Assembly: GCA_029558515.1 (NCBI GenBank)
Contig: JAKQEM010000024.1
Coordinates: 57,164-121,163, forward strand
Source of the DNA: a bacterium
GTDB lineage: Bacteria > Patescibacteriota > Gracilibacteria > Peribacterales > Peribacteraceae
DNA: 64,000 nucleotides
Direction: 5' to 3'
The position numbers were made by a program, and so were the translations under genes. Under the pieces are notes generated by a model. It had not been told where the DNA came from. It saw nothing but the letters and a program-made list of their open reading frames with translations, and ran no database searches. Below, one piece after another: positions 1-62,042 of the stretch; the first letter of the stretch is position 1, and every line of letters begins with the position of its first letter.

Positions 1-402
1 ATTTCCACGACGCCGGAATCGACGATCGCAGGACTCGATGCTCTGGACGATCGTGTCACGACCATCATTCTGGGGGGCCAAGACCGCGGCTACGATTTCA
101 CGGCATTGGCAAAACGCCTCGCGACATCTTCCGTACGCACCGCCATCCTCTTCCCCGGCTCCGGCCCCCGCATCCGCGCAGCGATCGAACAGCAAAAAGC
201 AGAAATCCGACTCTTCGACGCCCCATCGATGGAAGAAGCCGTCTTCATTGCCAAACGAGAAACAAACAACGAGCAACGAAGAACGCATGCGCGAGCACCG
301 ATCGTTCTGCTATCGACTGCGTCTCCCAGCTACGGCATGTTCAAGAATTTTGAGGAGAAGGGGGATGCATTTCAAAAGTGTGTACGAGGAGTAACGGAAT
401 AA
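1..402 (+). CDS. murD: UDP-N-acetylmuramoylalanine--D-glutamate ligase MurD, C-terminal part (5' end outside window)
   Basis: Frame 1 is open from base 1 to TAA at 400-402. ILGGQDRGYDF ... VLLSTASPSYGMFKNFEEKGDAF is the MurD C-terminal signature. It contains an AACGAA-word insertion (KRETNNEQRRT, 253-287), and the last 4 codons lie in repeat words. Confidence 0.8.
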   Translation: MSTTPESTIAGLDALDDRVTTIILGGQDRGYDFTALAKRLATSSVRTAILFPGSGPRIRAAIEQQKAEIRLFDAPSMEEAVFIAKRETNNEQRRTHARAPIVLLSTASPSYGMFKNFEEKGDAFQKCVRGVTE

Positions 403-521
403 CGGAATATCGGAATATAGGAGTAACGGGAGCGAAAAACCCACGCAGCACATCCCTGTTATTCCGTTACTCTGTTCCTCTGTTATTCCCCTGATCCTTC
501 GTCCCTCGTCCTTCGTCCTCC
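388..521. repeat. Inverted pair of 8/7-nt word arrays between convergent murD and grpE
   Basis: Left arm is TAACGGAA TAACGGAA TATCGGAA TATAGGAG TAACGGGA. Right arm is TGTTATTC CGTTACTC TGTTCCTC TGTTATTC followed by TCGTCC words. GTAACGGAATAAC (391-403) is a perfect reverse complement of 458-470. Both stop codons (400-402, 467-469) lie inside the arms. Confidence 0.85.
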
Positions 522-1066
522 GCCGCAGCGGCCCCGTCTCCCGCTCGCACTTTCGCCGGGCGCAGTACTTTTCCGTGCAACAGGTAGCCTTCCTCAAATA
601 CCTCCGTCACGATCCCCTCTTGTCCCGGGCCCATCGTGAGCACTTCGTGAAACTGCGGATCGACGACGGTCCCCATCGAGTCCATCCGCTTCAATCCGGC
701 GTCCGTCACCGTGCGCATCAATTCCTGCTCGATGACCGCCACGCCCTTCACCCATTCGTGCCCCTGCAAATCGTCCGGCACGTGCTGGAAGGCACGCTGA
801 AAGTTATCGAGTGTGGGGAGTAAACGGCGGATGATGGACTCCGTCGCAAACGCACGAATATCGGACGCTTCGCGCTCTGCCCGCGCCTTGGCATTCTGCA
901 AATCGGCCTGCGCCCTGCCCGCCAGATCCCGGAGTTTCTGCAGCTCCTCCTGCAAAGCGTTCCAATCCTGCTTGGCACCATCGTCGCTCGTCGATGCCTG
1001 CGCGACAGGGACGTCCTGCTGCGCCGCACCCTGCCCCGTGCCGTTCGTGTCATCCTGTTGCTGCAT
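467..1066 (-). CDS. grpE: Nucleotide exchange factor GrpE
   Basis: Coiled-coil N-terminus followed by IIRRLLPTLDNFQRA ... GTVVDPQFHEVL ... GYLLHGKVLRPAKV, typical of GrpE. Start is placed at the ATG at 1066 (MQQQDD). The C-terminal tail EDEGRGTKDQGNNRGTE is read from repeat words. Confidence 0.85.
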   Translation of the reverse strand: MQQQDDTNGTGQGAAQQDVPVAQASTSDDGAKQDWNALQEELQKLRDLAGRAQADLQNAKARAEREASDIRAFATESIIRRLLPTLDNFQRAFQHVPDDLQGHEWVKGVAVIEQELMRTVTDAGLKRMDSMGTVVDPQFHEVLTMGPGQEGIVTEVFEEGYLLHGKVLRPAKVRAGDGAAAAEDEGRGTKDQGNNRGTE

Positions 1067-1258
1067 GCACCCATGGTACTGAATCCAAGCCGCACGACAA
1101 GCGCAAGGCACGGATCCGACTCTCCCCGCCGGCCACATCATGAGGAGCAGATGCCGAAAACGGACACTCAAAACAGAGGGACCCGCTCCTTTGTGTGCAT
1201 TGCCCCGGAGAGGCAAACGCGGTATCGTCCACCGGCGCTACAAGAGATTTTTCTCATC

Positions 1259-1335
1259 GCCACGGTAGCTCAGTAGGTTAGAGCGCGGGACTCATAAGCC
1301 CGAGGTCGCCGGTTCAATTCCGGCCCGTGGCACCA
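1259..1335 (+). tRNA. tRNA-Met (anticodon CAT), elongator-type or lysidine-Ile2
   Basis: Acceptor GCCACGG/CCGTGGC, anticodon loop CTCATAA, T-arm GCCGG-TTCAATT-CCGGC, encoded CCA. G1-C72 is paired, so it is not an initiator. There is an A-G mismatch at 31-39. Confidence 0.9.
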
Positions 1336-1377
1336 CGTAAAACTGCGCGCAGCGAAGTGAGCAGCTGTTTTACGTGG
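1333..1377 (+). other. Hairpin starting in the tRNA-Met CCA end
   Basis: CCACGTAAAAC (1333-1343) pairs perfectly with GTTTTACGTGG (1367-1377) across a 23-nt loop. There is no T-run, so its role (processing or termination) is unknown. Confidence 0.35.
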
Positions 1378-1415
1378 GACGTGGCCGCGTAGCGGCTTTA
1401 CGTCCCTGCGCGCAG

Positions 1416-1463
1416 TCACGTGGCGCCGCCCCGTATAATGCGTCCGCATCACGTGGCGCCGCC
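1416..1463 (+). promoter_or_regulatory. TATAAT box flanked by a 15-nt direct repeat with a CACGTG core
   Basis: TCACGTGGCGCCGCC occurs at 1416-1430 and again at 1449-1463, bracketing TATAAT at 1434-1439. Further ACGTGG copies lie at 1373-1385. The site is upstream of the GIY-YIG ORF. Confidence 0.35.
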
Positions 1464-1490
1464 ATCAACATCACACTACAATCGTCCGCC

Positions 1491-1754: not shown

Positions 1755-1878
1755 CTATAAAATACTATTATATATTGCAAACCTATGCAATTAATAAGTA
1801 CAGACGCGAATCCCAGATAAAGGGATGGACGAGGGGGAAGGAGGTGCGGTATGGACGCAGTATGGCTACACTGACGGT

Positions 1879-2625
1879 ATGTCCCGCATCCTACTGTGTC
1901 TGCACGGCTGGGGAGGATCCAAAGAGTCCTTTCGGGAATTGCGCGACGCATTGAAGGAAACGGATCTGCTCATCCTGACACCGGATCTGCCGGGATTCGG
2001 AGACGAGCCGGAACCGGATCGTCCGTGGTCCGTGGATGAGTACGCCGACTGGGTGGAACAGTGGTACAAGAGGCAATCTGACACGAGCCAACAGCCAATA
2101 GCCCTACTGGGCCACTCCCACGGCGGCCGCATCGCCATCAAACTTGCCGCCCGCCACTCACCACTCACTACTCACAACTCACCACTTCTTATTTCTCACC
2201 TCTACCTTTGCGCCGCCGCAGGCATCCACCACCCGCGCGTGCTCCGACGATCTGTCGGTTTTCTCTTGGCTAAAATCGGCGCACTCGTTTTCCGTATCCC
2301 CGGCATCCGCGCACTGGAGCCACAGGGGAAAAAAGTGCTCTACCGCTTGATGCGCGTGCACGATTACGAGCGGGCGTCGCCGATCATGCGTGAGACGATG
2401 CGACGTGTTCGGAATGAAGATCTGACGACGCACCTCTCCTCCATCACCGTTCCCACCGATATCTTCTGGGGCACGGACGATACGATGACACCCCTGAAAG
2501 ACGGCCGCCTGATGCATCGGCTGATCAAAGGGAGTCACCTGCACGTCTTCCCGGGCATCCGCCACCGCGTCCACCGCGATAAGGCGCAGGACATTGCATC
2601 CGTGATTCGGTCACAGGTTGGGTAG
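1879..2625 (+). CDS. Alpha/beta-fold hydrolase
   Basis: ILLCLHGWGGS, nucleophile elbow GHSHGG, and a C-terminal H in GIRHRVH. The ORF opens at 1825 and the ATG at 1879 was chosen by typical N-terminal length. It contains an in-frame heptamer array. Confidence 0.7.
   Translation: MSRILLCLHGWGGSKESFRELRDALKETDLLILTPDLPGFGDEPEPDRPWSVDEYADWVEQWYKRQSDTSQQPIALLGHSHGGRIAIKLAARHSPLTTHNSPLLISHLYLCAAAGIHHPRVLRRSVGFLLAKIGALVFRIPGIRALEPQGKKVLYRLMRVHDYERASPIMRETMRRVRNEDLTTHLSSITVPTDIFWGTDDTMTPLKDGRLMHRLIKGSHLHVFPGIRHRVHRDKAQDIASVIRSQVG
2155..2203. repeat. In-frame heptamer array inside the hydrolase gene
   Basis: CACTCAC CACTCAC TACTCAC AACTCAC CACTTCT TATTTCT CACCTCT: seven phased 7-mers, translated HSPLTTHNSPLLISHLY. 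Confidence 0.85.
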
Positions 2626-2784: not shown

Positions 2785-4491
2785 ATGCTTCCCATCTTCA
2801 TGGCTTTGATCCTCTCGCTCCTCGTCCTCCTGGCCTCCCTCTCCCCTCTGCTCACGTTCAGCAGACTCTTTCAAATGAAAGAATGGCGCCTCGACCGCCT
2901 GCGTGAGCAACTTCGACAGGAAGGATGGAGCAATACTCTGCTCAGCAAAACCAGAATCTATGCCGGATTTGGATGGATGCTTTTCGTCCTCGTTGCGCTA
3001 CTCCTGCACGTCTTGCGTGTGACGGATATCTGGGAATATCGCATGATCAGTACGGGAAGCACCGCTCTCGTAGAACAATGGTACAAAGGGCTGCTCATCA
3101 TACTCTCGCTGACGGGACTCATGCAGTTCATACGAGGCAAACAGCACGTGCCCATTTTTACGAGGAAAGCGATGCTCATCCTGTGCGTGACTCTTGGCAT
3201 CAACCTGCTGATGGTGTACTTGCTCTCCGCATACACTCTGTGGGTACTCGATACACCGGGCAACCCGATACCGGTGCAACCGCTCCAATGGATGGTGATA
3301 TTCCTGCCCTTTGTGCAGCCATTCATCGTTCTTGTTGCTTGGATGCTACTCCTCCCTCTCGATCGCCTCCTCAAGAATCGTATCTTCGCACAAGCAAAAA
3401 CCTTGCGAGCGCAATGGAAGAATCCCATCGTCATCGGCATCGCGGGGAGCGTCGGGAAGACGACGGTGAAGGAATTGCTCGCAACGGTCCTCGCGGATCT
3501 GCACCCGCTGACCACGCCGGAACATGTGAACACGGAAATGGGTGTCTCCCAGTGGCTCATGAGGGAAATGAAAAACGAACAACGAACAACGAAAAACGAT
3601 GGTGTGCTCATCATCGAAATGGGTGCCTATCGCAGAGGAGAAATCGCGCTCCTCAGTTCGATCATCCGCCCGACTATCGGCGTCATCACGGCGCTGGGCT
3701 CGGATCACCTGGCGCTCTTTGGATCGGAAGAAGCCATCGTGCAGGCCAATGGAGAATTGATTGAAGCACTGCCACGAGACGGACACGCATTCCTCTACGG
3801 CGACAATACTGCCACCCGATCGCTGAAAAATCGTGCACCCTGCCCCGTCACCCTCGTGGGCACACAGCCTCACAACGATCAGCAAGCGAATGCAATCACA
3901 GAAAATGAACATGCTGTATCGTTTGAAACGAGGACACGAAATAACGAAATAACGATGTCTTCCATCTCCGTCCCCCTCCACGGCCTCCATAACGTAAACA
4001 ACATTCTCCTCGCCGTCGCCGTCGCCCGCCATCTCGGGATCACCGATGACCGCATCCGAGAGCTTCTCGCGGCACATCGTCCCCTCCGGACGACATTCCA
4101 TGTGCGGCATGAGCAAGGTGTTTGTCTCCTGGATGACACGTACAACATCAGTCCCTTGAGCCTGCGTGCCGCCATCGATTGGGCGGGGAATCAAACGCAA
4201 CGACCGCGTATACTGCTCACGAGCGGACTGCTGGAAACCGGCAACGCGGAGGATCGATTTCATGAGGAATCGGGTACATTCGCACAAGGGAAACTGGAAC
4301 ACGTCATCTTCACATCTGACCGCGGACGAACGGCATTTGCGCAAGGTTACGGCAAGGATGTGGAACGACTGACGGATGTGACGGAACGTGCGGTACCCGG
4401 TGCGCTGCTCCTCTGCGTCGGACGCATGTCTCCTGCAACCGTGCAGCGTCTGCTGCCCCACCCATCAACGAACAACGAAGTAACGAAATAA
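2785..4491 (+). CDS. murF: UDP-N-acetylmuramoyl-tripeptide--D-alanyl-D-alanine ligase (MurF-type Mur ligase) with an N-terminal multi-TM domain
   Basis: The P-loop is GIAGSVGKTT. Further Mur ligase signatures are IIEMGA, GVITALGSDHL, LHGLHNVNNILLAVAVA and DDTYNISPLS. The first ~200 aa are hydrophobic helices. Confidence 0.8.
   Translation: MLPIFMALILSLLVLLASLSPLLTFSRLFQMKEWRLDRLREQLRQEGWSNTLLSKTRIYAGFGWMLFVLVALLLHVLRVTDIWEYRMISTGSTALVEQWYKGLLIILSLTGLMQFIRGKQHVPIFTRKAMLILCVTLGINLLMVYLLSAYTLWVLDTPGNPIPVQPLQWMVIFLPFVQPFIVLVAWMLLLPLDRLLKNRIFAQAKTLRAQWKNPIVIGIAGSVGKTTVKELLATVLADLHPLTTPEHVNTEMGVSQWLMREMKNEQRTTKNDGVLIIEMGAYRRGEIALLSSIIRPTIGVITALGSDHLALFGSEEAIVQANGELIEALPRDGHAFLYGDNTATRSLKNRAPCPVTLVGTQPHNDQQANAITENEHAVSFETRTRNNEITMSSISVPLHGLHNVNNILLAVAVARHLGITDDRIRELLAAHRPLRTTFHVRHEQGVCLLDDTYNISPLSLRAAIDWAGNQTQRPRILLTSGLLETGNAEDRFHEESGTFAQGKLEHVIFTSDRGRTAFAQGYGKDVERLTDVTERAVPGALLLCVGRMSPATVQRLLPHPSTNNEVTK
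3571..3600. repeat. In-frame AACGAAC heptamer array in murF
   Basis: AACGAAC AACGAAC AACGAAA AACGAT, translated KNEQRTTKND. Confidence 0.8.
3926..3957. repeat. In-frame ACGAAATA octamer repeat in murF
   Basis: ACGAGGAC ACGAAATA ACGAAATA ACGATG, translated TRTRNNEITM. Confidence 0.7.
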
Positions 4492-4520
4492 CGAACTAAC
4501 GAAGTAACGAACTAACGAAC
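4466..4520. repeat. Tandem TAACGAAN octamer array filling the murF-DegT spacer
   Basis: CAACGAA CAACGAAG TAACGAAA TAACGAAC TAACGAAG TAACGAAC TAACGAAC. The murF stop (4489-4491) is one of the TAA copies. The array ends 1 nt before the ATG at 4522. Confidence 0.9.
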
Positions 4521-5817: not shown

Positions 5818-5894
5818 AAATATGCGATACTTTGAAATAGGTAACAAATCCGGTTCGATGAAAGCAAACGAACAAAACGTACACAACGTCTGGG

Positions 5895-6092: not shown

Positions 6093-7223
6093 ATGCACGT
6101 CCAACCCGCCACCGATGCTCAAGCTTGGGAATCGTTCCTGACGAACCGCCCTGATGCCCTCTTTCTGCAAAGCTGGACGATGGGCGAAGTGTACCGGGAC
6201 ATCGGGCAGGAGCCCGTGCGATTGGAAATACGGAACGACTCGGGTGCCATCAGCGGCATCTGCCAAGCCATCGTGGTCCCGGCCCGGCGCGGCAGACACC
6301 TGATGGTGCAGTACGGACCGGTGCTGGAAGATCCCGCCGCCCTCTCTCCTCTCCTCGATACACTGAAAGACATCGCTCGAGATCATCATTGCTCTTTCCT
6401 TCGCATCAGCCCATTCTGGCCGGAATCCCAAATCCCAAATCCCAAATCCCAAATCCCCGATTCTCTTCCCTCACCGCTCCATCTGCTCTCTGAGTACACC
6501 TGGTACATTCCCCTGAGACAAATTGATCCATGGGCGGAATTACGAACAAGCGAATCAATGCATCAACGAATCAACGACTATGCGGCCCCCGTCACAGAAG
6601 AATCCATCCTGAAGAACATGCGCAAAACGACTCGCAACCTGATCGGCAGGGCACAACGTGAAGGCGTCACCGTCGTCGCCTCCTCCCATCCATCGGCAGA
6701 TCTGAACATCTACTTTCGGCTGCAGAAGGAAACGACGCACCGGCATGGATTCGTCCCGTATCGCGACTCCTTCATCCGCGCACAGGTGGCGCACTTCGCA
6801 CCCAAAGGACAAGCCATCGTGTACATCGCACGGTACAAAGACGAACCGGTCGCCGCATCGGTCCACATGAGCTACGCAAGCATCACCAGCTACCATCACG
6901 GCGCCTCCACGCACAAGTACGCCAAAATCCCCGCAAGTTACCTGCTGCAATGGACCGCGATTCGTGAAGCCCTGCATCGCGGCGACTGTGTCTACAACTT
7001 CTGGGGCATCGCTCCGCCGAGTCATGAGTCTCGAGTCTTGAGTGATGAGCAACCGCTCAAAACTCACCGCTCCGGACACCCCTTCGCCGGCGTCACCACG
7101 TTCAAAACTGGATTCGGCGGAAAACCTCTCCCGCTGATGCACTGCCGCGATGTGCCCCTTTCCCGCACGTACCGATTCACGCGAGCATTTGAGACGGTGC
7201 GCAAGTGGAAACGAGGATTCTAG
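6093..7223 (+). CDS. FemAB-family peptidoglycan interpeptide-bridge aminoacyltransferase
   Basis: FLQSWTMGEVY, NMRKTTRNLIGRAQREGV, YHHGAST, YLLQW and FKTGFGG match the FemAB/lipid II peptidyltransferase pattern. Start is at the ATG at 6093 (MHVQP). Confidence 0.75.
   Translation: MHVQPATDAQAWESFLTNRPDALFLQSWTMGEVYRDIGQEPVRLEIRNDSGAISGICQAIVVPARRGRHLMVQYGPVLEDPAALSPLLDTLKDIARDHHCSFLRISPFWPESQIPNPKSQIPDSLPSPLHLLSEYTWYIPLRQIDPWAELRTSESMHQRINDYAAPVTEESILKNMRKTTRNLIGRAQREGVTVVASSHPSADLNIYFRLQKETTHRHGFVPYRDSFIRAQVAHFAPKGQAIVYIARYKDEPVAASVHMSYASITSYHHGASTHKYAKIPASYLLQWTAIREALHRGDCVYNFWGIAPPSHESRVLSDEQPLKTHRSGHPFAGVTTFKTGFGGKPLPLMHCRDVPLSRTYRFTRAFETVRKWKRGF
6424..6458. repeat. In-frame AATCCCA heptamer array in the FemAB gene
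   Basis: AATCCCA x4 followed by AATCCCC, translated SQIPNPKSQIP. Confidence 0.9.
7023..7050. repeat. In-frame NNTGAGT heptamer array in the FemAB gene
   Basis: CATGAGT CTCGAGT CTTGAGT GATGAGC. This is the reverse complement of the AAGACT/GAGACT word family seen at 30448-30468 and 50255-50310. Confidence 0.7.
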
Positions 7224-7725: not shown

Positions 7726-7865
7726 TCAGGCAATCAGCGCCTTCCACTCGCTCCACGAAAGTCCTCTCCCGGGATACGCGGAATTCTTGAAGGGCCACGC
7801 ATCGTGCATCCACTGTCACACAGGGCAATACAACACGTCCTTGAGCCCGCTTTTTCCCCTATCCC

Positions 7866-7910
7866 ACCTCCTTCGTCCCTAGTCCCTAGTCCCCCGTCCT
7901 CATCCCTCCC
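7866..7910. repeat. TCGTCCC/TAGTCCC heptamer array at the 3' end of a convergent gene
   Basis: TCGTCCC TAGTCCC TAGTCCC CCGTCCT CATCCCT. The stop codon of the 7900..9336 gene lies inside the array. Confidence 0.8.
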
Positions 7911-14031: not shown

Positions 14032-14165
14032 CCAGACGGGGAAAACGGAGTAACAGGACGGGAATAAGAGTAACAGAGTAACAGAGTAACAGAGTAACAG
14101 GTCTGTATTGAACGGGGCTTCCAACCCTGTTACTCAGTTATTCGGTTATTCCGATACTCCCTCCT
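14026..14165. repeat. Inverted octamer arrays between the convergent VirB4-like and DHH genes
   Basis: GAGTAACA occurs as 4 tandem copies (14068-14099). GAGTAACAGG (14092-14101) pairs perfectly with CCTGTTACTC (14126-14135). The right arm is TGTTACTC AGTTATTC GGTTATTC CGATACTC. Both stop codons (14029-14031, 14146-14148) lie inside the arms. Confidence 0.9.
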
Positions 14166-15285: not shown

Positions 15286-16155
15286 ATGTCTGCTTCCGTC
15301 ATCTTCTGCGGCACGCCCGCCTTCGCTGTTCCGTCACTGGAAGCGCTCGCCGCCGATCCGGCATTTGACGTGTCGCTCGTCATCACCCAGCCCGATCGCC
15401 CGGTGGGTCGCAGCAAAGAACTCATTGCCTCTCCCGTGAAACAAGCAGCGCAACGATTGCATCTTCCCGTCGCACAACCGGAGAATATCAATCACATGCT
15501 CGCAGATACCCAATACCCAATCCCCAATCCCCAATTTCTCATCGTCGTCGCCTACGGCCAAATCCTCTCGCAACACATCCTCGACCTTCCGCAGATCGCC
15601 CCCGTGAATGTCCACGGTTCGCTGCTCCCGCGCTGGCGCGGCGCTTCTCCCGTCGAACATGCGATCCTCGCGGGGGACACCGAAACCGGCGTGACCATTC
15701 AGATCATGGAGACGACGCTGGACACCGGCCCCATCCTCGCGATGCGCAAGACACCGATTGGTCCGCGCGACACGACGCTCCAACTCAAGGAACGTCTGTG
15801 TGTGATCGGTGCAGATCTCTTGGTGCAGACACTGAAAGCACCTCTCCGGCCCATCCCACAACCGACTGAAGGTATCACCGTCTGTCGCAAGCTCTCGCGG
15901 GAAGATGGCAGAGCCGAGCCGCAAACTATGACTGCGCAGCAAATCGATCGCATGGTCCGCGCACTGGTCCCCTGGCCGGGCGTCACCTGCTTCATCAATG
16001 GTCAAGCACTCAAACTCATCGCAACGGCACTCGAACCGACGGACACGTCGATTCCCCTCCCCTGCGCGCAGGGGACGACACTGCATCTCGTCACCGTGCA
16101 GGAAGCGGGGAAGAGGGCAATGACGGGGCAGGAGTGGGAGAGAGGGCAGCGTTAA
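15286..16155 (+). CDS. fmt: Methionyl-tRNA formyltransferase
   Basis: VIFCGTPAFAVPSL, ITQPDRPVGR and NVHGSLLPRWRGASPVEHAI are classic Fmt motifs. Confidence 0.9.
   Translation: MSASVIFCGTPAFAVPSLEALAADPAFDVSLVITQPDRPVGRSKELIASPVKQAAQRLHLPVAQPENINHMLADTQYPIPNPQFLIVVAYGQILSQHILDLPQIAPVNVHGSLLPRWRGASPVEHAILAGDTETGVTIQIMETTLDTGPILAMRKTPIGPRDTTLQLKERLCVIGADLLVQTLKAPLRPIPQPTEGITVCRKLSREDGRAEPQTMTAQQIDRMVRALVPWPGVTCFINGQALKLIATALEPTDTSIPLPCAQGTTLHLVTVQEAGKRAMTGQEWERGQR
15508..15535. repeat. In-frame ACCCAAT/CCCCAAT heptamer array in fmt
   Basis: ACCCAAT ACCCAAT CCCCAAT CCCCAAT, translated TQYPIPNPQ. Confidence 0.9.
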
Positions 16156-46013: not shown

Positions 46014-46225
46014 GGGATCGGGGGAAAACTGCGATAAGTGTAACACCGGTGTTACACCTTTACAAGGTGCAAAGAGTCCACATCCCTCTCCCGATCCCCT
46101 ACACTCTCCCCGTGGTCATTTCTCATTTTGCATTTTTTACCCTGAGCGAGTCAGCCGCAGATGACGAGTCGAAGGGCGCATTTCTCCTCATCAATTATCA
46201 ATTTTCCATTATCCATTCCTCTCCG

Positions 46226-48998: not shown

Positions 48999-50243
48999 AT
49001 GTCTCTCCACACCCTCATGTTCGGATGGGAGTATCCCCCGCTTCACTCGGGAGGATTGGGGGTGGCCTGTCAGGGGCTGGTGAAGGGACTCTTGAAGAAC
49101 GGCACACGCGTCACACTGGTCCTGCCGATGAACGCATCGCATGACGAAGGAGCGCAGCTTGCCATGCGCGGACCGGGACAAGGCATGGACGGCGACGAGC
49201 CCGATATTCGGTTCATCGAGAGTGCGTTGCAACCCTACGAGGGAACGGCGGAGTATGAAGAGCGTATGATTGCGGCGGCGACTGCAAACGGCCAACCGTT
49301 CATCGATCTCTACGGACCGGATCTCGGTCAGGCAGTCGAGCGATTCACGGCCATGAGCATCGAAAAGACGAAAGACGTGCAAGCGGACGTCGTCCACTGC
49401 CACGATTGGATGACCTACGATGCTGGAATCCGCGCGGCAACATACCATCGTAAACCGCTGGTTGCACACATCCATGCCACGGAACTCGATCGTACGGACT
49501 TCCATCCCAATCAGTGGATCGCCGAGCGCGAACGATCGGGCTTCCTGCAAGCGGATCGCATCATTGCCGTCAGCCAGTACACAAAAAATATTCTGGTACG
49601 ACACTACGGCATCGCCGCGGACAAGATCAGCGTGGTCCACAACGGCCACAACGTATCCGCGCCCGTCGCGCATCACAACACCATCGTGTCCTCTGCCATC
49701 CACAAGCGTGCGCCGCTCGTGCTCTTTGTGGGACGTCTCACGCTGCAGAAGAACCCGCGACAATTTTTGGACACGGCGAAGATCGTGCACGAGCTGCGTC
49801 CTGATGTGCAATTCGTGATGGCCGGCGACGGCCCGATGCTCCCCGAACTCATGGACCACGCCTGCGCGCTGGGCCTCACCGACTGCGTGTCCTTCACGGG
49901 CACGGTCACTCGCAAGGAAGTCGATCAGCTCTATAAATCGGCGGACTGCTTCGTGATGCCCTCCTTGAGTGAACCCTTCGGATTGGTTGCACTGGAAGCC
50001 ATCGCCCAAGGGACGCCCGTCATTCTCAGCAAACAATCCGGTGCGGCGGAAGTCATCGAACACGGATTCAAAGTCGATTTCTGGGACACGGATAAATTCG
50101 CCGACTGCATCCTCACAATCCTGCGGGAGCAACCGCTGGCCGAACAGCTCATCGCCGAAGCTCCGTCCATACTCCACCGCCTCAACTGGCAAAACCAAGC
50201 GAACAACGTGATGTCGATCTATAGAGACTTACTGAAGACGTGA
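48999..50243 (+). CDS. Glycosyltransferase, glycogen-synthase-like (GT4/GT5 GT-B fold)
   Basis: FGWEYPPLHSGGLGVACQGL is at the N-terminus. Other motifs are HCHDWMT and PSLSEPFGLVALEAIAQGTPVI. Confidence 0.75.
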   Translation: MSLHTLMFGWEYPPLHSGGLGVACQGLVKGLLKNGTRVTLVLPMNASHDEGAQLAMRGPGQGMDGDEPDIRFIESALQPYEGTAEYEERMIAAATANGQPFIDLYGPDLGQAVERFTAMSIEKTKDVQADVVHCHDWMTYDAGIRAATYHRKPLVAHIHATELDRTDFHPNQWIAERERSGFLQADRIIAVSQYTKNILVRHYGIAADKISVVHNGHNVSAPVAHHNTIVSSAIHKRAPLVLFVGRLTLQKNPRQFLDTAKIVHELRPDVQFVMAGDGPMLPELMDHACALGLTDCVSFTGTVTRKEVDQLYKSADCFVMPSLSEPFGLVALEAIAQGTPVILSKQSGAAEVIEHGFKVDFWDTDKFADCILTILREQPLAEQLIAEAPSILHRLNWQNQANNVMSIYRDLLKT

Positions 50244-50422
50244 GTGATGACTTATGAGACGTGAGATATGAGACATAAGACGTAAGACACAAGTAACCAG
50301 ATACGAGACAACGAGATAACGAACTAACGAATTCTCTCCACTCTCAACTCTCAACTCTCCACTCTCAACTCCCCCGTCCTTCGTCCTTCGTCCCTCGTCC
50401 TTAGTCCTTCCTCCCCCGTCCC
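50241..50422. repeat. 26 phase-locked heptamer words filling the whole spacer
   Basis: The sequence parses without a phase slip from the TGA at 50241 to the base before the ATG at 50423 (word list in the findings). Confidence 0.95.
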
Positions 50423-51817
50423 ATGCCCGCCGTCTGCTTCTACTTCCAGGTCCATCAGCCCTACCGCCTCAAAGATCTGCGCATTCGACACATGGACTGT
50501 GAGCACCCTGCGTACTTCGACGAAGAGAAGAACCGACAGATCTTCCGGAAAGTCGCGGAGAAGTGCTATCTGCCGACCAACAAGCTGATGCTGGATCTGC
50601 TGAATCGACACAAGGATTTCCACATCGCATACTCGCTCTCCGGCGTCTTCCTCGACCAATGCAAGGAATACGGACCCGACGTACTGGCATCCTTCCAGGA
50701 GTTGGCAAAGACAGGCAAAGTAGAATTCCTCGCGGAAACCTATTACCACTCGCTCTCCGCCGTCGCATCGATCGGTGAATTCGCCGAACAAGTGGGCATG
50801 CACGTGCGTGCCATGGAAGAACTCTTCGGCCAAACCCCGCGCACCTTCCGCAATACCGAACTCATCTTCAACAATGAAATAGCCCAGATAGCGCGGCTCA
50901 TGGGCTTCTCCGGCATCATCGCCGAAGGCACTGACCATCTGCTGCGTGGCCGCAGTCCCAATAACCCCTTCCGCATCCCGCAGTTCCGCGTCAGCCGCGG
51001 CCAGGAGCGCGCCATCGGCACCAAGCGTCCTCTGGCGGAACGGGCGAAAGACATCACGGTCCTCTTGAAGAACTATCGCCTCAGCGATGACATCGCCTTC
51101 CGTTTCTCCGACCGCAACTGGTCCGGGCATCCCCTCTCCGCGGAAACGTACGCCGACTGGGTGCAGCACAATGACGGCCACACGGTCAATCTCTTCATGG
51201 ACTACGAAACCTTCGGCGAACATCAATGGGCCGATACGGGTATCTTCGATTTTTTGGAAGCATTGCCGCGCATACTGGGAGCGCGTGGCATCCCCTTCTT
51301 TACACCCGCACAAGCCATTGATACCTGGAAAAACAAACACCGTGACCTCTACGACGTTCACTCCACCATTTCCTGGGCGGATACCGAACGCGATCTCTCC
51401 GCGTGGACCGGAAATCGCATCCAGCAGAGCGCCCTGCATGCGGCATTCGCATTGGAACACGCCATCAAAGCATCGGAGGATGCAGAACTCCTGAACGTTT
51501 GGCGCAAACTCCTCACCTCAGACCACCTCTATTACATGAGCACCAAGTACTGGAATGACGGCGACGTACACAAATACTTCAGCCCGTACGAATCCCCCTA
51601 CGAAGCCTACCGCCGTTTCAGTCACGCGCTGTGCGACCTGAGGGAGCGCGTAACGATCGGCGCAACGAGTGCGGTGAAAACGAAACAACGCACCAAGAAA
51701 CACGCGACCATAAGCACGGGGCGGAAGATACAAGACGCAAGACACAAAAATGCGACGAAACGAGAAACGAATAAACGAAATAACGAAATAACGAACAAAC
51801 GAACTTCTATCTCCTGA
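50423..51817 (+). CDS. GH57-family glycoside hydrolase with a repeat-derived C-terminal tail
   Basis: VCFYFQVHQPYRL, and a GH57-like FMDYETFGEHQW region. The last ~30 codons are read from a heptamer array. Confidence 0.8.
   Translation: MPAVCFYFQVHQPYRLKDLRIRHMDCEHPAYFDEEKNRQIFRKVAEKCYLPTNKLMLDLLNRHKDFHIAYSLSGVFLDQCKEYGPDVLASFQELAKTGKVEFLAETYYHSLSAVASIGEFAEQVGMHVRAMEELFGQTPRTFRNTELIFNNEIAQIARLMGFSGIIAEGTDHLLRGRSPNNPFRIPQFRVSRGQERAIGTKRPLAERAKDITVLLKNYRLSDDIAFRFSDRNWSGHPLSAETYADWVQHNDGHTVNLFMDYETFGEHQWADTGIFDFLEALPRILGARGIPFFTPAQAIDTWKNKHRDLYDVHSTISWADTERDLSAWTGNRIQQSALHAAFALEHAIKASEDAELLNVWRKLLTSDHLYYMSTKYWNDGDVHKYFSPYESPYEAYRRFSHALCDLRERVTIGATSAVKTKQRTKKHATISTGRKIQDARHKNATKRETNKRNNEITNKRTSIS
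51727..51817. repeat. 13-word heptamer array forming the 3' end of the GH57 ORF
   Basis: GATACAA GACGCAA GACACAA AAATGCG ACGAAAC GAGAAAC GAATAAA CGAAATA ACGAAAT AACGAAC AAACGAA CTTCTAT CTCCTGA. Confidence 0.85.
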
Positions 51818-59339: not shown

Positions 59340-59349
59340 ACCGATGCAT

Positions 59350-59566
59350 GATAAATGCGAAATGATAAATGCGAAATGCGAAAATGAATAATAGTGACAA
59401 GGACTGCAAGGATGACAAAGACTACAAGGAATACAAAAATGACGTCGATAACAATATTCCTCCTTCATTACACATACATACATATATCCTTGTCTTCTTT
59501 GTAATCTGTTCCCCTCATTATTTTCTACCCCCTACAACCTACCCCCAACCCCCTGCCCCCTTCATC
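59350..59566. repeat. Long low-complexity word array in the trpS-rluA spacer
   Basis: GATAAAT GCGAAAT GATAAAT GCGAAAT GCGAAAA ... then CAAGGA-type words ... then CTACCCC CTACAAC CTACCCC CAACCCC CTGCCCC. Both ends are 7-phased; the middle is less regular. Confidence 0.8.
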
Positions 59567-60248: not shown

Positions 60249-60271
60249 GCGGGGAGTGTACAGCAAAAACG

Positions 60272-61135
60272 TCACGCATCGATGCCAAACGCCTGCCGCA
60301 CGGCAAATCCTATCCCGAAGTTCACCAGGGCGACTGTCAGACTGATGAGCGCCATCTGCAGGAAACGCGTGCGGAAAGACGTTCCCTTGGCAACGGACGT
60401 GTAGAACGTGAAGAGGAAGACGATGAGGATGGCAACGATCAGCGTGGCACCCAGCGCCTCAAAGGGATTGGCAACGAAGAAATAGGGCGAAATAAGCAGA
60501 ACAACCGTGATGAGGTACGAAATACCCGTCATGACCCCGGCCTGCATCGCATTCTTCCCTTCTTCCTCCTGCGTGGACAAGTATTCGGCCGCCGCCATGG
60601 ACATTGCCGCGGCGATGCCGGTAATCAATCCCACCATCGCAATCAATCGCGTATCGGCCAGTGCCAGCGTAAGACCCGCCAGCGCACCCGTCAGCTCGAC
60701 CAACGCATCATTGAGGCCGAGCACGAAGGAACTCACATACTGCAGAAACCTTTCATCGATCAATCCCAATAACTCCCGCTCATGTTTCTGCTCATCCTCC
60801 ATGATGGCCAGCGCCCCGCGGTCCTCCTCGCCGATCTTCGCGTAGGCTTGCTGCGCCATCTCTTCCCCGCGCTCCATCAAACGCAACGCAAAACTCAGAC
60901 CGAAGACGGATGCCAGGAAGGAATACCAACGAATCCTCCAATGCGAAGGAGCCACATCTTCATCGAGAAGAGCCGTCCAATGTGCGTAGTGCCACTTCTC
61001 CTGCTCCGCAATCTTCTCCAAAATGGCGCGATTCCCCGCATGCTTCGTCCGCGCGGCGATACGCCTGTAAATATGGTATTCGGTAATTTCGTTGCGTGCG
61101 GCGACCCGGACCCGTGAGCGAAGAGCGGCATCCAT
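60272..61135 (-). CDS. VIT1/CCC1-family iron/manganese transporter with an N-terminal ferritin-like domain
   Basis: EITEYHIYRRIA...EKWHY is the ferritin-like part. GLNDALVELTGALAGL and the C-terminal TM helices are the VIT part. Confidence 0.7.
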   Translation of the reverse strand: MDAALRSRVRVAARNEITEYHIYRRIAARTKHAGNRAILEKIAEQEKWHYAHWTALLDEDVAPSHWRIRWYSFLASVFGLSFALRLMERGEEMAQQAYAKIGEEDRGALAIMEDEQKHERELLGLIDERFLQYVSSFVLGLNDALVELTGALAGLTLALADTRLIAMVGLITGIAAAMSMAAAEYLSTQEEEGKNAMQAGVMTGISYLITVVLLISPYFFVANPFEALGATLIVAILIVFLFTFYTSVAKGTSFRTRFLQMALISLTVALVNFGIGFAVRQAFGIDA

Positions 61136-61192
61136 ACGATGGATGGTAACACAGAAAAAGAGCAGACACACCTCGAGTGCGATGGGACCGCT

Positions 61193-61453
61193 CTACCCCT
61201 CTGTTCCCAAACCCTGTAAAAGCTTCTGCATGCTCTCATGATACAAATCCTGCAACGAAATCGCTTCAGGATGATCCGATGCGGTAGCGGTCGGAGAATC
61301 TACGGTATTGGGAACGACTGTTTCCACATCAGCATGAAATTTCTTCTGCCATCCGCATAGTGCTGCCAAAATGAGCATGGCAGGAACCGCAAAGTTTTTT
61401 GCATAGGTAGAAGGAGAGAATACACCGGGGTATTTCATATAAATATTGTACAA
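61193..61453 (-). CDS. Hypothetical small membrane protein
   Basis: 86 aa with one TM segment (FAVPAMLILAALCGW). Confidence 0.35.
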   Translation of the reverse strand: MYNIYMKYPGVFSPSTYAKNFAVPAMLILAALCGWQKKFHADVETVVPNTVDSPTATASDHPEAISLQDLYHESMQKLLQGLGTEG

Positions 61454-61520
61454 TATTTGTTAAATTATGTCAAAACCGCCCCCTCACCGGGAGCGGTTTG
61501 GAACGTACCGACAGGTACGA

Positions 61521-61646
61521 TTACAGGGCGGGCGTCTCGGGAGTCGGCTCGGCGGGAGCGGCAGGAGCAGGCTCGGCGGGAGCGGCAGGAGCATCCGGCG
61601 TAGGAGCAGAAGTTGGCGTGCCCTCTTCATCAATGAACGTGAACAT
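61521..61646 (-). CDS. Possible 41-aa Pro/Ala-rich peptide
   Basis: The product is MFTFIDEEGTPTSAPTPDAPAAPAEPAPAAPAEPTPETPAL. It is below the ORF-track size cut-off. A 24-nt tandem repeat encodes PAAPAEPA twice. Weak call. Confidence 0.2.
   Translation of the reverse strand: MFTFIDEEGTPTSAPTPDAPAAPAEPAPAAPAEPTPETPAL
61547..61594. repeat. Tandem 24-nt repeat (2 copies, 23/24 identical)
   Basis: GCTCGGCGGGAGCGGCAGGAGCAG followed by GCTCGGCGGGAGCGGCAGGAGCAT. Confidence 0.9.
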
Positions 61647-61805
61647 AGGAAACAGGGGAAAGAAATACATGCATCGACCATAGGGGTGCATCTATCTCGC
61701 CGCAATAATTTACAAGTTGCGCAAATCCCGAGATGTCCTGGGATGACCCATTGGCATCAACTTCATTGCGCATAGAGATGAGGTTTGCTTCAATGTGCGG
61801 GCTTT

Positions 61806-61882
61806 GGACGATTAGCTCAGCTGGTTAGAGCGTGCGATTCACATTCGCAAGGTCACTGGTTCGAATCCAGTATCGTCCACCA
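61806..61882 (+). tRNA. tRNA-Val (CAC)
   Basis: Acceptor GGACGAT/ATCGTCC, anticodon stem TGCGA/TCGCA with loop TTCACAT, T-loop TTCGAAT, encoded CCA. Confidence 0.92.
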
Positions 61883-62042
61883 TTCGACTCGCTTCGCTCG
61901 CTCATGGTGAACCGACTGCAACTCCGAGCCATTTGTTGCAGTTCGAAGAGTCGAATGACAGTGAGCGAGGCCGCAGCCGAGTCGAACTGCCTCGTTCGTT
62001 CGGGTTCGAACGACATCCACTAACTTCCACCATTCGACTCGC
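61876..62042. repeat. 17-nt direct repeat that duplicates the tRNA-Val 3' end
   Basis: TCCACCATTCGACTCGC occurs at 61876-61892 (the last 7 nt of the tRNA plus 10 nt) and again at 62026-62042. The 133 nt between the copies is rich in GAGTCGAA/TTCGACTC words in both orientations. Confidence 0.85.

Follow-up and report, generated by a model that had tools for sequence, protein, structure and literature searches.

Introduction

A 64,000-nt stretch of DNA from Candidatus Peribacteria (candidate phyla radiation), called the window here, carries short words that recur in tandem at many loci and in both orientations. A sequence-only reading had described seven families of these 7/8-nt words as a dispersed set of tandem oligomers with no single consensus, apparently native to the host genome and outside every standard feature type. 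In this study, we asked whether the arrays are real, what generates them and why their vocabulary is so limited.

Enrichment and shared vocabulary

TRF detected 56 non-overlapping arrays in the window, against 10.9-13.2 expected from order-1/3/5 Markov simulations. Arrays of period 7/8 numbered 28, compared with 3.2-3.6 (maximum 7) in the same simulations, and 8 further TRF arrays have periods that are multiples of 7/8. Our own tally comprises 34 arrays at about 22 loci, covering 1188 nt (1.9% of the window). Sequence reading and TRF found the seven word families where they had been reported, and every locus listed earlier proved to be a tandem array of 7/8-nt units.

In 52 array pairs the two arrays have an exact 8-mer in common, against 0.7 (maximum 4) for units drawn from the window's own sequence and 11.3 +/- 3.1 (maximum 20) when columns were permuted within each array, which keeps composition and degeneracy. 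Composition explains part of the word sharing, not most of it. The window holds exactly two copies of the 18-nt match CTCTCCACTCTCAACTCT noted earlier, one at 50334-50351(+) and the other at 30420-30437(-); 0 were expected from 100 shuffles. The reverse-complement relations also held: 25394-25423 and 59354-59383 (family E) are 93% complementary, and 30414-30437 and 50334-50357 (family B) are 96% complementary. The word families also appear in a further 9.5 kb of this genome's sequence and are present in the closest relative found, L087 (FemAB identity 76%); they were not found in 1.3 Mb of other loci. These observations support the view that the vocabulary is a property of the lineage.

Could the arrays be an artefact of base composition, codon bias or assembly? 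The composition-keeping null does reproduce 11.3 of the 52 pairs. However, composition and codon bias failed as a full explanation, since arrays are four- to eightfold scarcer in Markov shuffles up to order 5. Away from the arrays, the words are found at the order-3 Markov frequency; they are no commoner than expected there and the excess is therefore purely tandem. The same sequence, with identical arrays, is present in four independent assemblies and thus does not depend on assembly. The enrichment, the word-sharing nulls, the word frequency away from arrays and the sample comparison refute this explanation, which retains virtually no probability.

The AT-rich segments, from whose lack of these words a host-native process had been argued, indeed contain no arrays. 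That argument has no statistical power, as about 1.7 arrays are expected in these 3.3 kb and the chance of zero is about 0.17.

Place among known repeats

A dispersed set of tandem words with no one consensus was borne out, and neither CRISPR, a single-consensus REP nor an ordinary MITE accounts for the arrays. We found no support for the view that the arrays fit no standard feature type: over-represented heptamer simple-sequence repeats are already a described class. Examples are the long SSRs of Mrazek et al. 2007, as summarised in PMC4679880 and PMC4692102, the cyanobacterial STRR, the GGGAATC/GGGGATT repeats and the TAACTGA repeats. Slippage has likewise been invoked for members of this class in other phyla (PMC4692102, PMC4679880). 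The window arrays resemble this class in their intergenic bias, inverted pairs between convergent genes, all-frame stop codons at gene ends and missing ribosome-binding sites. Read on the opposite strand, the CCCAAT/AATCCCC family gives the Nostoc word GGGGATT. The class to which the arrays belong is known but poorly understood. We consider it probable that the arrays are of this heptamer long-SSR or STRR type, driven by slippage and template switching and partly co-opted.

Arrays at gene ends and in spacers

The arrays lie in intergenic spacers, C-terminal tails and in-frame loops. They cover 5.7% of non-coding DNA compared with 1.09% of coding DNA, and several spacers consist of arrays over 60-100% of their length. 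The arrays at gene ends and in spacers, other than the hairpin arms, are as follows.

495..522, +: family C, TCCTTCG/TCCCTCG, antisense to the GrpE coding sequence at its 3' end
4467..4520, +: 8-nt form of family A, TAACGAAN x6.9; provides the Mur ligase stop codon and occupies the entire 30-nt spacer up to the DegT ATG
5866..5889, +: degenerate family A, DegT-FemAB spacer
7857..7899, +: TCCTTCG / TCCCTAG, family C plus CCCTAGT, immediately following the minus-strand SH3-deacetylase stop codon; TAG every 7 nt on the sense strand
16217..16236, +: family B, AACTCTC x2.9, spacer after Fmt
30414..30438, -: GAGTGGA/GAGTTGA, reverse complement of family B, where the ends of the L1 (+) and Dus (-) genes overlap
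30448..30468, +: family G, CAAGACT x3.0, perfect
50226..50293, +: family G, GAGACNT/AAGACNT, rich in stop codons, spanning the GT4 stop codon
50294..50331, +: 8-nt form of family A, ACGAGACA to TAACGAAC
50332..50371, +: family B, CTCTCCA/CTCTCAA x5.4
50372..50422, +: family C, CGTCCTT/CGTCCCT x5.7, reaching to the GH57 ATG; arrays make up 100% of the 179-nt spacer 50244-50422
59348..59383, -: ATGATAA/ATGCGAA, reverse complement of family E, upstream of the tRNA synthetase gene on the minus strand
59395..59437, +: 9-nt units GACAAGGAC/TACAAGGAA x4.4, in the same spacer
59525..59561, +: CTACCCC x5.3, immediately following the minus-strand RluA stop codon; TAG in three frames on the sense strand

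Hairpins from inverted array pairs

At gene ends, inverted array pairs form long hairpins, with predicted folds of -38 to -47 kcal/mol (z = -3.7 to -4.0, apart from z = -2.1 for the fold of 39000-39120).

387..429, +: family F, GGAGTAAC/GGAATAAC, left arm, containing the MurD stop codon (400-402)
456..487, -: family F reverse complement, GTTATTCC/GTTACTCT, right arm, containing the GrpE stop codon (467-469); fold of 380-495, -38.5 kcal/mol, z = -4.0
14023..14100, +: family F, GAGTAAC arrays, left arm after a TraG/VirB4-like gene; polymorphic, with perfect AGAGTAAC x4.2 at 14067-14100
14129..14160, -: family F reverse complement, right arm, overlapping the minus-strand DHH stop codon
39006..39036, -: GGGATTG, reverse complement of family D, left arm after the preceding ORF
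39078..39117, +: family D, CCCAATC/CCAAATC, right arm, running into the ATG at 39117; fold of 39000-39120, -43.2 kcal/mol, z = -2.1

These pairs, and perhaps the arrays generally, might be small mobile fold-back elements of REP or MITE kind, spread by a putative nuclease or transposase, in which the tandem words would be internal structure of the arms. A 76-nt hairpin (78% identity, E = 9e-9), matched by BLAST between the window genome and L087, lies at non-orthologous convergent gene pairs in the two genomes, the different gene pairs sharing an exact 18-mer. Two family F hairpins of the window are alike in their arm words and have the same inner stem, GTAACAGGG/CCCTGTTAC, the hairpin types at the MurD/GrpE junction differ between the window genome and L087, and the families are clade-specific. 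However, most arrays have a single orientation and many lie in coding loops without length change. Neither terminal structures nor target-site duplications are apparent in the window, a single consensus is absent, and the window's gene calls include no RAYT/IS200-type gene. Template switching, which was observed directly in the sample comparison, can yield inverted copies without a transposase. We regard mobile elements as an improbable explanation.

Variation between samples

Near-identical assemblies were compared pairwise over about 107 kb, and isolated single-base substitutions were absent from this comparison. In sample 3300025859, the sole difference in 21,054 nt is one extra 8-nt AGAGTAAC unit at 14067; whole-unit array change thus occurs between near-identical populations. 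This intergenic change is the only unit-number polymorphism seen directly. Only two other differences separate these assemblies: a 141-nt unit is present in 1.2 or 3.2 copies depending on the sample, and one clustered patch creates a perfect 20-nt inverted repeat. The copy change and the patch are signatures of replication slippage and intra-strand template switching.

Arrays inside coding sequences

Many arrays sit within real coding sequences, a point that the sequence-only reading overlooked. They lie in frame in variable loops of real enzymes (MurD, Mur ligase, FemAB, Fmt and a glycosyltransferase), with net length unchanged; the arrays in coding regions are listed below.

254..285, +: MurD, family A, AACGAGA/AACAAAC/AACGAGC/AACGAAG, in frame, encoding KRETNNEQRRT
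2154..2186, +: alpha/beta hydrolase loop, CCACTCA x4.7, in frame, RHSPLTTHNSPL
3566..3599, +: Mur ligase middle domain, family A, AAACGAA x4.9, in frame, EMKNEQRTTKND
3936..3955, +: Mur ligase, 8-nt form of family A, ACGAAATA x2.5, in frame
6424..6457, +: FemAB loop 1, family D, AATCCCA x4.9, perfect, in frame, ESQIPNPKSQIP; G-quadruplex motif on the minus strand
6542..6577, +: FemAB loop 2, ACGAATCA-type, in frame
7018..7043, -: FemAB loop 3, GAGTCTN, reverse complement of family G, in frame
15506..15535, +: Fmt, family D, ATACCCA/ATCCCCA x4.3, in frame, DTQYPIPNPQF; length unchanged relative to E. coli Fmt
25392..25423, +: glycosyltransferase, family E, CATTTCG x4.6, perfect, in frame, HFAFRISHFAF
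25821..25876, +: same glycosyltransferase, family A, two AAGCGAACAACGAACAAC copies 38 nt apart, in frame
46117..46217, +: N-terminal region of a CAP-domain protein, family E-like CATTTCT/CATTTTG (46117-46135) and ATCAATT x4.0 (46190-46217)
51725..51747, +: GH57 C-terminal tail, family G, AAGAYAC x3.3
51758..51803, +: GH57 C-terminal tail, family A, AAACGAAA/TAACGAAA, forming the tail KRETNKRNNEITNKRT

The perfect non-triplet arrays in FemAB and the glycosyltransferase might be contingency loci for phase variation, these cell-envelope genes being turned off or on whenever one 7-nt unit is gained or lost. Both envelope-related genes hold perfect 7-nt arrays of 4.6-4.9 copies, one-unit variation does occur in an intergenic array, and the FemAB site of L087 is equally perfect with a different word. 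Ends of Logan contigs fall within each of the three most perfect arrays (6428, 14096 and 25394), one ending at 6428 in the FemAB array and one starting at 25394 in the glycosyltransferase array, and the contigs of one run break exactly at these two. On the other hand, the coding arrays agree across all assemblies, and neither the assemblies nor the recorded proteins include length variants of them or frameshifted products of these genes. Housekeeping enzymes such as MurD and Fmt hold similar arrays, and switching these off would harm. Phase variation is therefore very doubtful.

Comparison with L087 and other Peribacteria

At 5 of 7 coding sites, L087 has an array where the window genome has one, and its corresponding spacers hold arrays too. 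Each of these is internally homogeneous and made of other words, as concerted evolution of arrays predicts. It carries AAGGACA/AATGTCA at the MurD site (254..285), AACGAAG x4.4 at the alpha/beta hydrolase site (2154..2186), GAGAAATGCAAAAT at the Mur ligase site (3566..3599), AACGAATT x3.9 in the DegT-FemAB spacer, CCCTACT x6.9 plus TCGTCCT at the SH3-deacetylase site (7857..7899), and AAATGCA x4.6 in FemAB loop 1, where the conserved flanks are the same. At the GH57 gene junction, other Peribacteria carry other arrays.

Word families are nevertheless shared with L087 at non-orthologous sites, irregular unit orders included, which pure slippage leaves unexplained. At least nine array-to-array BLAST matches between the two genomes have E below 1e-3, and none at that level was found against 1.3 Mb of other loci. 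The CAP-domain array region (46117..46217) has an exact 19-nt match to the Mur ligase loop array of L087, and the family C array at 50372..50422 matches a non-orthologous array of L087 at 93% identity over 28 nt. Four-fold sites are 49% identical between the genomes, and composition alone gives 34%.

This conservation of families and irregularities at non-orthologous loci, with neutral sites near saturation, would be expected if the words were sequence-specific functional sites and slippage varied only their copy number. They might be recognised by a protein that binds RNA or DNA, or serve as modular punctuation, in which stop words would mark 3' ends, C-rich words would form leaders before start codons, and inverted pairs would work as terminators or as hairpins for translational coupling. 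For TAACTGA repeats at such positions, MacGregor put forward a role in translational regulation (PMC4679880). In line with such a role, arrays adjoin start codons although the genome lacks Shine-Dalgarno sites, stop-containing words lie at gene ends on the sense strand in both gene orientations, the MurD/GrpE junction hairpins are retained in both genomes despite different words, and arrays at the GH57-GH15 junction recur across Peribacteria. However, stop-containing words survive only at gene ends and their placement needs no positive function. The same word is found sense and antisense, coding and non-coding; family C lies upstream of one + strand gene, whereas in two minus-strand genes it is antisense to the 3' end, which argues against a single RNA-level role. 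Array orientation tracks the DNA strand rather than the gene, successive sites spaced 7-8 bp apart would lie on different helix faces, and orthologous sites carry unrelated words. Functional sites as the source of the vocabulary thus appear rather unlikely.

Proposed origin and strand asymmetry

Under the slippage and template-switching origin that we favour, 7-8-nt units would be repeatedly duplicated and deleted, and template switching would place an opposite-orientation array copy nearby, giving reverse-complement copies and hairpins with the same words in both arms. Selection would purge arrays except where they are tolerated, in intergenic spacers, around the last codons and stop codon, and in protein surface loops. 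In loops, the A/C-rich sense orientation would give hydrophilic peptides, and unit gains and losses would cancel, leaving the length of the loop unchanged. Co-option of some arrays is probable, to judge by their position. Inverted pairs may serve as gene-end stem-loops, words containing TAA, TGA or TAG may supply stop codons in every frame, and G-poor, C-rich words may form a leader before start codons in this genome without Shine-Dalgarno sites.

Copying or homogenisation of clade-specific array families between loci may account for part of the limited vocabulary, and the A+C-rich composition of the strand for another part. On the + strand, 27 of the 34 arrays are A+C-rich (p = 4e-4), and 13 of the 14 arrays within coding sequence lie in + strand genes (p = 0.007). 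At third codon positions, genes of either orientation have C>G and A>T when read along the + strand, and across the 64 kb this skew has the same sense as the asymmetry of the arrays.

Results

Tandem arrays and their words

Every locus listed in the sequence-only reading was found, by TRF and by direct reading, to hold a head-to-tail array of 7/8-nt words, which belong to families A (AACGAAC), B (CACTCTC/AACTCTC), C (TCGTCC), D (CCCAAT/CCAAAT), E (CATTTCG), F (GAGTAAC) and G (AAGAC). After overlap removal, TRF returned 56 arrays in the window, compared with 10.9-13.2 in Markov simulations of orders 1, 3 and 5. Twenty-eight had a period of 7 or 8 and a further 8 had multiples of it, as against 3.2-3.6 (maximum 7) in the simulations. 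Arrays of these periods comprise 2.1-6.9 copies with 66-100% matches, and their units abut without spacer. Curation left 34 arrays, which are spread over about 22 loci and occupy 1188 nt (1.9% of the sequence).

The recurrence of words between arrays, also claimed from the sequence alone, was confirmed: 52 array pairs have an exact 8-mer in common, whereas 0.7 (maximum 4) are expected when units are drawn randomly from the window. Under a stricter null, in which the columns of each array were permuted so that composition and degeneracy were kept, 11.3 ± 3.1 pairs (maximum 20) were obtained. Composition therefore accounts for only about a fifth of the word sharing, and the array excess likewise surpasses the Markov models of all three orders. 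Because the words occur outside arrays at the frequency that an order-3 model predicts, the excess is purely tandem. Reverse-complement relations between arrays were upheld at 93-96%, and the 18-nt match reported for family B is exact and confined to the two places in which it had been seen. Two similarities were discarded: the 14-nt super-period common to family B arrays is no proof of copying, since one two-state variable position makes such matches likely, and the 12-nt flank identity beside family A arrays in two different genes (CTCATCATCGAA) is a coincidence that involves native coding sequence in both.

The same families appear again in 9.5 kb of new sequence left of the window, which holds arrays of TCGTCCTTG, AATGACC with an inverted partner, ATGCAAC and CCTACAACC. 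The two AT-rich segments are both free of arrays, as had been noted, but the conclusion drawn from this, that the process is native to the host, does not follow, since only about 1.7 arrays are expected there.

Contigs identical or near-identical to the window were present in three JGI metagenomes (3300010356, 3300009690 and 3300025859) and one Logan assembly (SRR5007133), so the arrays are not an accident of assembly. The best species-representative relatives of the GH57 protein (50423-51817) are Candidatus Peribacteria MAGs (59-68% identity). By the gene calls of these contig records and Pfam, the window carries an ordinary small-genome set: MurD, a second Mur ligase, DegT, FemAB, Fmt, tRNA synthetases, ribosomal proteins L11 and L1, ClpB, RuvB, glycosyltransferases, GH57/GH15, T4SS-like pilins and seven tRNAs. 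These tRNAs were the only Rfam matches in the window at gathering thresholds, and none fell on the arrays.

Spacers, gene ends and protein loops

Arrays cover 5.7% of the non-coding and 1.09% of the coding nucleotides. Nine spacers carry them, and several consist of arrays to 60-100%.

Spacers rich in arrays (coordinates in the window; share occupied by arrays)
4492-4521: 97%
14032-14145: 75%
39007-39116: 63%
50244-50422: 100%

Many arrays cross a stop codon and thus supply the last residues of the protein, as in MurD (...RGVTE*), the Mur ligase (...STNNEVTK*) and GH57 (...KRETNKRNNEITNKRTSIS*). Words with TAA, TGA or TAG are found at the 3' ends of + and minus-strand genes alike, in each case on the sense strand. 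For TAACTGA repeats, gene 3' ends were described as the sole place where such stop words survive (PMC4679880).

Thirteen arrays are situated well within genes, where the reading frame is kept despite the non-triplet unit. They include arrays in MurD, an alpha/beta hydrolase, the Mur ligase (two), FemAB (three), Fmt, a GT1 glycosyltransferase (three) and a CAP-domain protein. The alignment of Fmt with E. coli Fmt is gap-free across the array. When 16 FemAB homologues were aligned, the three arrays coincided with the three hypervariable loops, and loop 1 is neither longer nor shorter than in homologues that lack arrays. The gap-free Fmt alignment and the retained length of FemAB loop 1 indicate that the arrays replace loop sequence and are not simply inserted.

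The arrays are also asymmetric between the strands. On the + strand 27 of the 34 are A+C-rich (p = 4e-4), and the exceptions are mostly inverted partners in hairpins. At third codon positions the + DNA strand shows a strong excess of C over G and of A over T, whichever the orientation of the gene (absolute skews 0.11 to 0.24). On the sense strand the skews are opposite (GC -0.15 and AT +0.14 in + genes, GC +0.11 and AT -0.24 in minus-strand genes), so the asymmetry is a property of the DNA strand and not of transcription. Family C keeps one orientation throughout, upstream of a + gene (50372-50422) and antisense at two minus-gene 3' ends (495-522 and 7857-7899). Thirteen of 14 coding arrays are in + strand genes, which hold 59% of the coding DNA (p = 0.007). 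We infer that arrays originate A/C-rich on the + strand. In + genes the resulting peptides would be hydrophilic (N, E, Q, R, T, K, P, S), while arrays in minus-strand genes would give V, F, L and C and would be removed.

Long hairpins are predicted where arrays of one family occur as inverted pairs.

Predicted hairpins (coordinates in the window; context; folding energy; z)
380-495: convergent MurD/GrpE; -38.5 kcal/mol; z = -4.0
14020-14165: convergent TraG-like/DHH genes; -46.9 kcal/mol; z = -3.7
39000-39120: -43.2 kcal/mol; z = -2.1

The two family F hairpins have arm words and an inner stem (GTAACAGGG/CCCTGTTAC) in common. Palindromic loci number only 3-4, among at least seven unrelated word families.

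Changes between near-clonal populations

Pairwise alignment of the window with the other assemblies, over about 107 kb, revealed exactly three differences and no isolated point substitution. The first, which is the single direct case of unit-number variation between populations, was seen in sample 3300025859, where the perfect array 14067-14100 is longer by one 8-nt unit (AGAGTAAC); it is the sole difference in 21,054 nt. The second concerns a 141-nt unit at 48684-48850, inside a hypothetical gene, which is present in 1.2 copies in the window and 3.2 copies in sample 3300010356 (contig L081, 7980-8435). This unit has internal hairpin-like segments, and Rfam gave no match there. The third lies about 8.9 kb left of the window, where two samples of one population (contigs L208 and L209, 19996-20008) differ by eight clustered changes in 13 nt. 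In L209, CATCCTGCGCGAAGGTCGGT has become CATCCTCCGTGGAATCCTCT, the exact reverse complement of AGAGGATTCCACGGAGGATG 21 nt upstream. The two now make up a perfect inverted repeat of 20 nt (AGAGGATTCCACGGAGGATG / CATCCTCCGTGGAATCCTCT), with 21 nt between its arms. This patch is a textbook signature of intra-strand template switching at a quasi-palindrome.

The SRR5007133 contigs terminate within the three most perfect arrays (6428, 14096 and 25394), which is very unlikely by chance, as arrays make up so little of the sequence. These breaks suggest length heterogeneity in that sample. Since only such events separate the near-clonal assemblies, and contigs break in perfect arrays, the mutational regime visible in this population is one of slippage and template switching.

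Same sites and other words in relatives

The closest relative found was contig CAYZGJ010000007.1 of GCA_964478005.1 (L087 hereafter), which is syntenic with the window and richer in arrays. FemAB is 76% identical between the two and five proteins span 62-77%, while four-fold sites are 49% identical, compared with 34% from composition alone. The strict array density per 10 kb was 3.0 in the window, 7.1 in L087, 0.66 in 16 other Peribacteria/Peregrinibacteria loci (15 from Peribacteria plus locus L030) and 0.45 in 64 unrelated loci. Orthologous places are occupied by arrays in both genomes, mostly with different words.

Words at orthologous sites (site; window; L087)
FemAB loop 1, between the conserved flanks GGCCGGA and ATTCTCTTCC: AATCCCA x4.9 (35 nt); AAATGCA x4.6 (32 nt)
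Mur ligase loop: AAACGAA; GAGAAATGCAAAAT
Hydrolase loop: CCACTCA; AACGAAG
MurD internal site: AACGAGA/AACAAAC; AAGGACA/AATGTCA
MurD/GrpE hairpin arms: GGAATAAC; CCAATGA
SH3-deacetylase 3' end: GTCCCTA + TCGTCC; CCCTACT x6.9 + TCGTCCT

Only one of 10 orthologous array pairs has an exact 7-mer in common, a share no higher than that of random inter-genome pairs (0.084). Several of the word changes amount to two substitutions per unit (AAATCCC to AAATGCA; AAAACGA to AAAATGC), which would be the expectation of in-place concerted evolution at the divergence between the window and L087. In the spacer between the Mur ligase and DegT, L087 (8371-8507) has a 39-nt unit x3.5 followed by C-rich arrays (CTCTACCCCCTCCACCC, and TCCTCTCC x5), and the window has only a 30-nt array of TAACGAAC.

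Between two closer comparison loci (L004 and L005; GH57 87% identical), an orthologous array is almost unchanged, its irregular unit included, and its inverted partner is missing in one genome. Arrays occur at the GH57-GH15 junction in most Peribacteria examined, often as inverted pairs that span the stop codon and the next start codon; the words there are GAAAATG/ATTTTCA, ACATTCG, GTGGAAA/ACTTTCA or TAACGAAG/CTTCGTTA.

A vocabulary shared between unrelated loci

The window genome and L087 have word families in common at non-orthologous loci, sometimes in the same irregular unit order. One case is a 76-nt hairpin, which separates an SMC-like gene from RuvC in the window genome and lies at the MurD/GrpE junction of L087. 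Its two copies align at 78% identity (E = 9e-9) and contain the same exact 18-mer, TTGGTCATTGGGATTTGG. The two genomes also agree at 93% over 28 nt in TTCGTCCTTCGTCC(T/C)TCGTCCTTAG, exactly over the 19 nt of AAATGCAAAATGAGAAATG, and at 88-91% in several 8-nt family A arrays. The same searches detected no array-to-array match in 252 kb of other Peribacteria or in 1.06 Mb of unrelated loci. Because the words are shared with L087 at non-orthologous loci and with none of the other loci, the vocabulary is clade-specific and better conserved than neutral DNA. A vocabulary specific to each genome was not supported: the 7-mer sharing between window and L087 (0.084 of array pairs) is close to that within the genomes (0.125 and 0.098).

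A metagenome scan for AACGAA x3 gave heterogeneous matches, many of them eukaryotic-looking among those listed, and no further contig of the window genome was among them. The scan revealed the same architecture in other organisms, represented by contigs L103 and L159, the latter from Anaerolineae by its RecG (87-92% identity). Several different 7/8-nt words, often in inverted pairs, occur in L159 at 3113-9051 and in L103 at 483-3198; examples are AACGAATG/TTATTCGT, AGGGATC/ATTCCCTG, GTTCGTTA/GAACTAAC and AAGGTAA/GCCTTTA.

Discussion

Relation to known repeats

To our knowledge, heptamer arrays have been known for more than 30 years in scattered bacterial lineages, with no agreed mechanism or function. 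The interpretation first offered for the window was right in that the arrays are real and a property of the lineage. The further statement that no standard feature type explains them is not tenable, as they belong to the heptamer-type long SSRs (STRR/LSSR, 5-11-nt units). Abutting units, excess over composition, bias to non-coding DNA and gene ends, variation in unit number and sporadic abundance among lineages were all observed; since these are the defining features, the arrays are members of this class and not a new kind of element. Reportedly, Calothrix has the STRR words CCCCA(A/G)T, TTGGTCA and CAACAGT, the first two of which are presumably the CCCCAAT and AATGACC/TTGGTCA words of the window genome. 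As relayed in PMC4679880 and PMC4692102, the cyanobacterial STRR (short tandemly repeated repetitive sequences) and the long SSRs of Mrazek, Guo and Shah (2007) resemble the window arrays in having several heptamer words per genome, a strong excess in scattered lineages and a mainly non-coding location, and their period was explained by how much DNA the polymerase holds. Units of SSRs in coding regions are usually multiples of three (PMC4679880), so the non-triplet units inside essential enzymes of the window are unusual for the class.

The positional habits of the arrays match two described cases. Rehm et al. (2015) reported heptameric G-rich repeats, GGGAATC in Xanthomonas and GGGGA(T/C)T in Nostoc PCC 7120, and proposed polymerase slippage as their origin (PMC4692102). 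Like the window arrays, these are tandem 7-nt units, mainly intergenic and near start or stop codons, with inverted pairs between convergent genes and with length and sequence that vary at the same gene pairs among related species (PMC4692102). Family D (AATCCCC / CCCAAT; GGGGATT and GGGATTT on the minus strand) is the Nostoc word itself and fits the G-quadruplex pattern; here it is one of at least seven families, in a CPR host. The quadruplex motif (four or more G3+ runs, loops of 1-7 nt) was found only in the family D arrays 6427-6458, 15509-15532 and 39091-39116, on the minus strand, so the notion that every C-rich family is of the quadruplex type was rejected. In most other families (AACGAAC, GAGTAAC, CACTCTC, CATTTCG, AAGAC) no quadruplex is possible, unlike in the Nostoc and Xanthomonas repeats.

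The second case is that of the TAACTGA direct repeats of marine Beggiatoaceae, cyanobacteria and Bacteroidetes (MacGregor 2015; PMC4679880). They stand in 2-6 copies a few nucleotides from start codons, usually with the ribosome-binding site missing; they often overlap the upstream stop codon, the word giving stop codons in three frames, and occasional copies lie within ORFs at the protein periphery (PMC4679880). The TAACGAAC and GAGTAAC arrays of the window behave in the same way. On the other hand, TAACTGA is a single dominant word whose related heptamers are seldom repeated (PMC4679880), whereas the window has many words, often pairs them in inverted orientation and also carries arrays in internal loops of proteins. 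Altogether, the differences from the described heptamer cases are of degree: many word families against one to three, 7-nt units mixed with 8-nt ones, a high frequency of fold-back pairs, direct evidence of mutational events, and one third of the arrays inside conserved enzymes despite the non-triplet period. A literature search on Peribacteria and other CPR found no mention of such arrays.

That the arrays are not REP, MITE or CRISPR was correctly anticipated. The hairpins share with REP/BIME an extragenic, clade-specific and dispersed occurrence as imperfect palindromes, often between convergent genes, with stable stem-loops. However, they have no single consensus, as REP do; their arms are tandem 7-8-mers, most arrays are non-palindromic, and the few palindromic loci among so many unrelated families exclude single-consensus REP. 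No RAYT (IS200/IS605-like) Pfam family was present in the gene calls over the window, with about 74 kb of the genome covered. MITE were rejected because the arrays mostly keep one orientation and those in coding regions replace loop sequence without length change; the hairpin loci, read in the sequence, showed no evident target-site duplication of flanking bases. CRISPR is excluded too: the units of 7-8 nt abut, in contrast to the 24-48-nt CRISPR repeats with unique spacers of similar length, and no cas gene was called in the window.

Phase-variable contingency loci are SSRs in Haemophilus, Neisseria and Helicobacter. With them the window has in common perfect non-triplet repeats in envelope-related genes and a change of unit number between populations, but its arrays are also found in housekeeping genes and in every kind of spacer. 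No frame-switching unit-number variant was seen, all assemblies being in agreement at the coding arrays, and the protein clusters of the genes concerned contained start-codon variants only and no length variants of the coding arrays; the contig breaks at 6428 and 25394 are only suggestive. Phase variation of FemAB and the glycosyltransferase is possible.

Mechanism and significance

The best account of the arrays, in which we have moderate confidence, is that slippage and template switching generate them, that selection then leaves those in tolerated positions, and that some were probably co-opted. Template switching would offer a direct route to reverse-complement copies and could thereby generate hairpins with both arms made of the same words. 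Slippage alone does not explain word families shared at non-orthologous loci. The vocabulary could have arisen if arrays are copied from locus to locus or homogenised, if the words themselves are under selection, or if the replication machinery has an intrinsic preference for such words. An intrinsic component is favoured because the GGGGATT word recurs in Nostoc and Xanthomonas relatives (PMC4692102) and because L159 and L103 have the same architecture with related words.

A bolder reading, which we regard as unlikely, is that the arrays are clade-specific, sequence-constrained modular elements, actively copied between loci, that serve as gene punctuation in a genome without Shine-Dalgarno sites. 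If so, words with stops in all frames would close genes, C-rich and G-poor words would act as translation leaders, hairpins of inverted word pairs would serve as terminators or in translational coupling, and the same machinery would overwrite enzyme surface loops. This would explain why the words, their irregular orders and the 76-nt hairpin are conserved at non-orthologous sites despite the low four-fold identity. The limited vocabulary conserved across species at unrelated loci is the only point at which the window might go beyond the ordinary.

The case adds a candidate-phyla-radiation lineage to the hosts of heptamer arrays and provides clean material, with near-clonal populations separated only by slippage and template-switch events and a sister genome for site-by-site comparison. 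As the non-triplet arrays lie in conserved enzymes, protein alignments can date and delimit them. Public reads and complete genomes can be used to ask whether arrays are a by-product of a particular replication and repair make-up, whether their orientation tracks the replication fork, and whether copying or selection keeps the vocabulary limited. In practice, arrays break assemblies, give spurious C-terminal extensions and change loop sequences in annotated proteins.

Other features of the window

Outside the arrays, five G-quadruplex-pattern motifs are present on the + strand (16107-16146, 16488-16509, 37439-37476, 47930-47953 and 48774-48792), compared with 0.17 expected under an order-3 Markov model; this strand is otherwise G-poor. 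The window also has several small T4SS-pilin-like genes, one PrgI-like gene and one TraG/VirB4-like ATPase at dispersed positions (12133-14031, 18299-19706, 31514-31885 and 36071-36721). An AT-rich block of hypothetical genes (42994-46013, GC 0.43) adjoins tRNA-Gly(tcc) at 45087-45160, is followed by a ParE toxin/antitoxin pair and looks like an integrated island; a second AT-rich gene is at 53901-54962. The longest inverted repeat of the window is the tRNA-Gly pair 20051-20125 / 45086-45160 (ccc and tcc anticodons, opposite strands, 80% complementary over 75 nt), which represents ordinary paralogy.

Shine-Dalgarno-like sites were nearly absent, being seen in 7 of 69 genes when the 30 nt upstream of 66-69 start codons were inspected over the whole window. 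Candidatus Peribacter riflensis is likewise SD-scarce and lacks CCUCC (PMC10783764). Positions -12 to -1 before the start codons are pyrimidine-rich and G-poor on both strands (C 33-50%, G 6-27%), and the leader is often TCCCCC or CTCC in genes of either strand. This C-rich leader may merit study in its own right.
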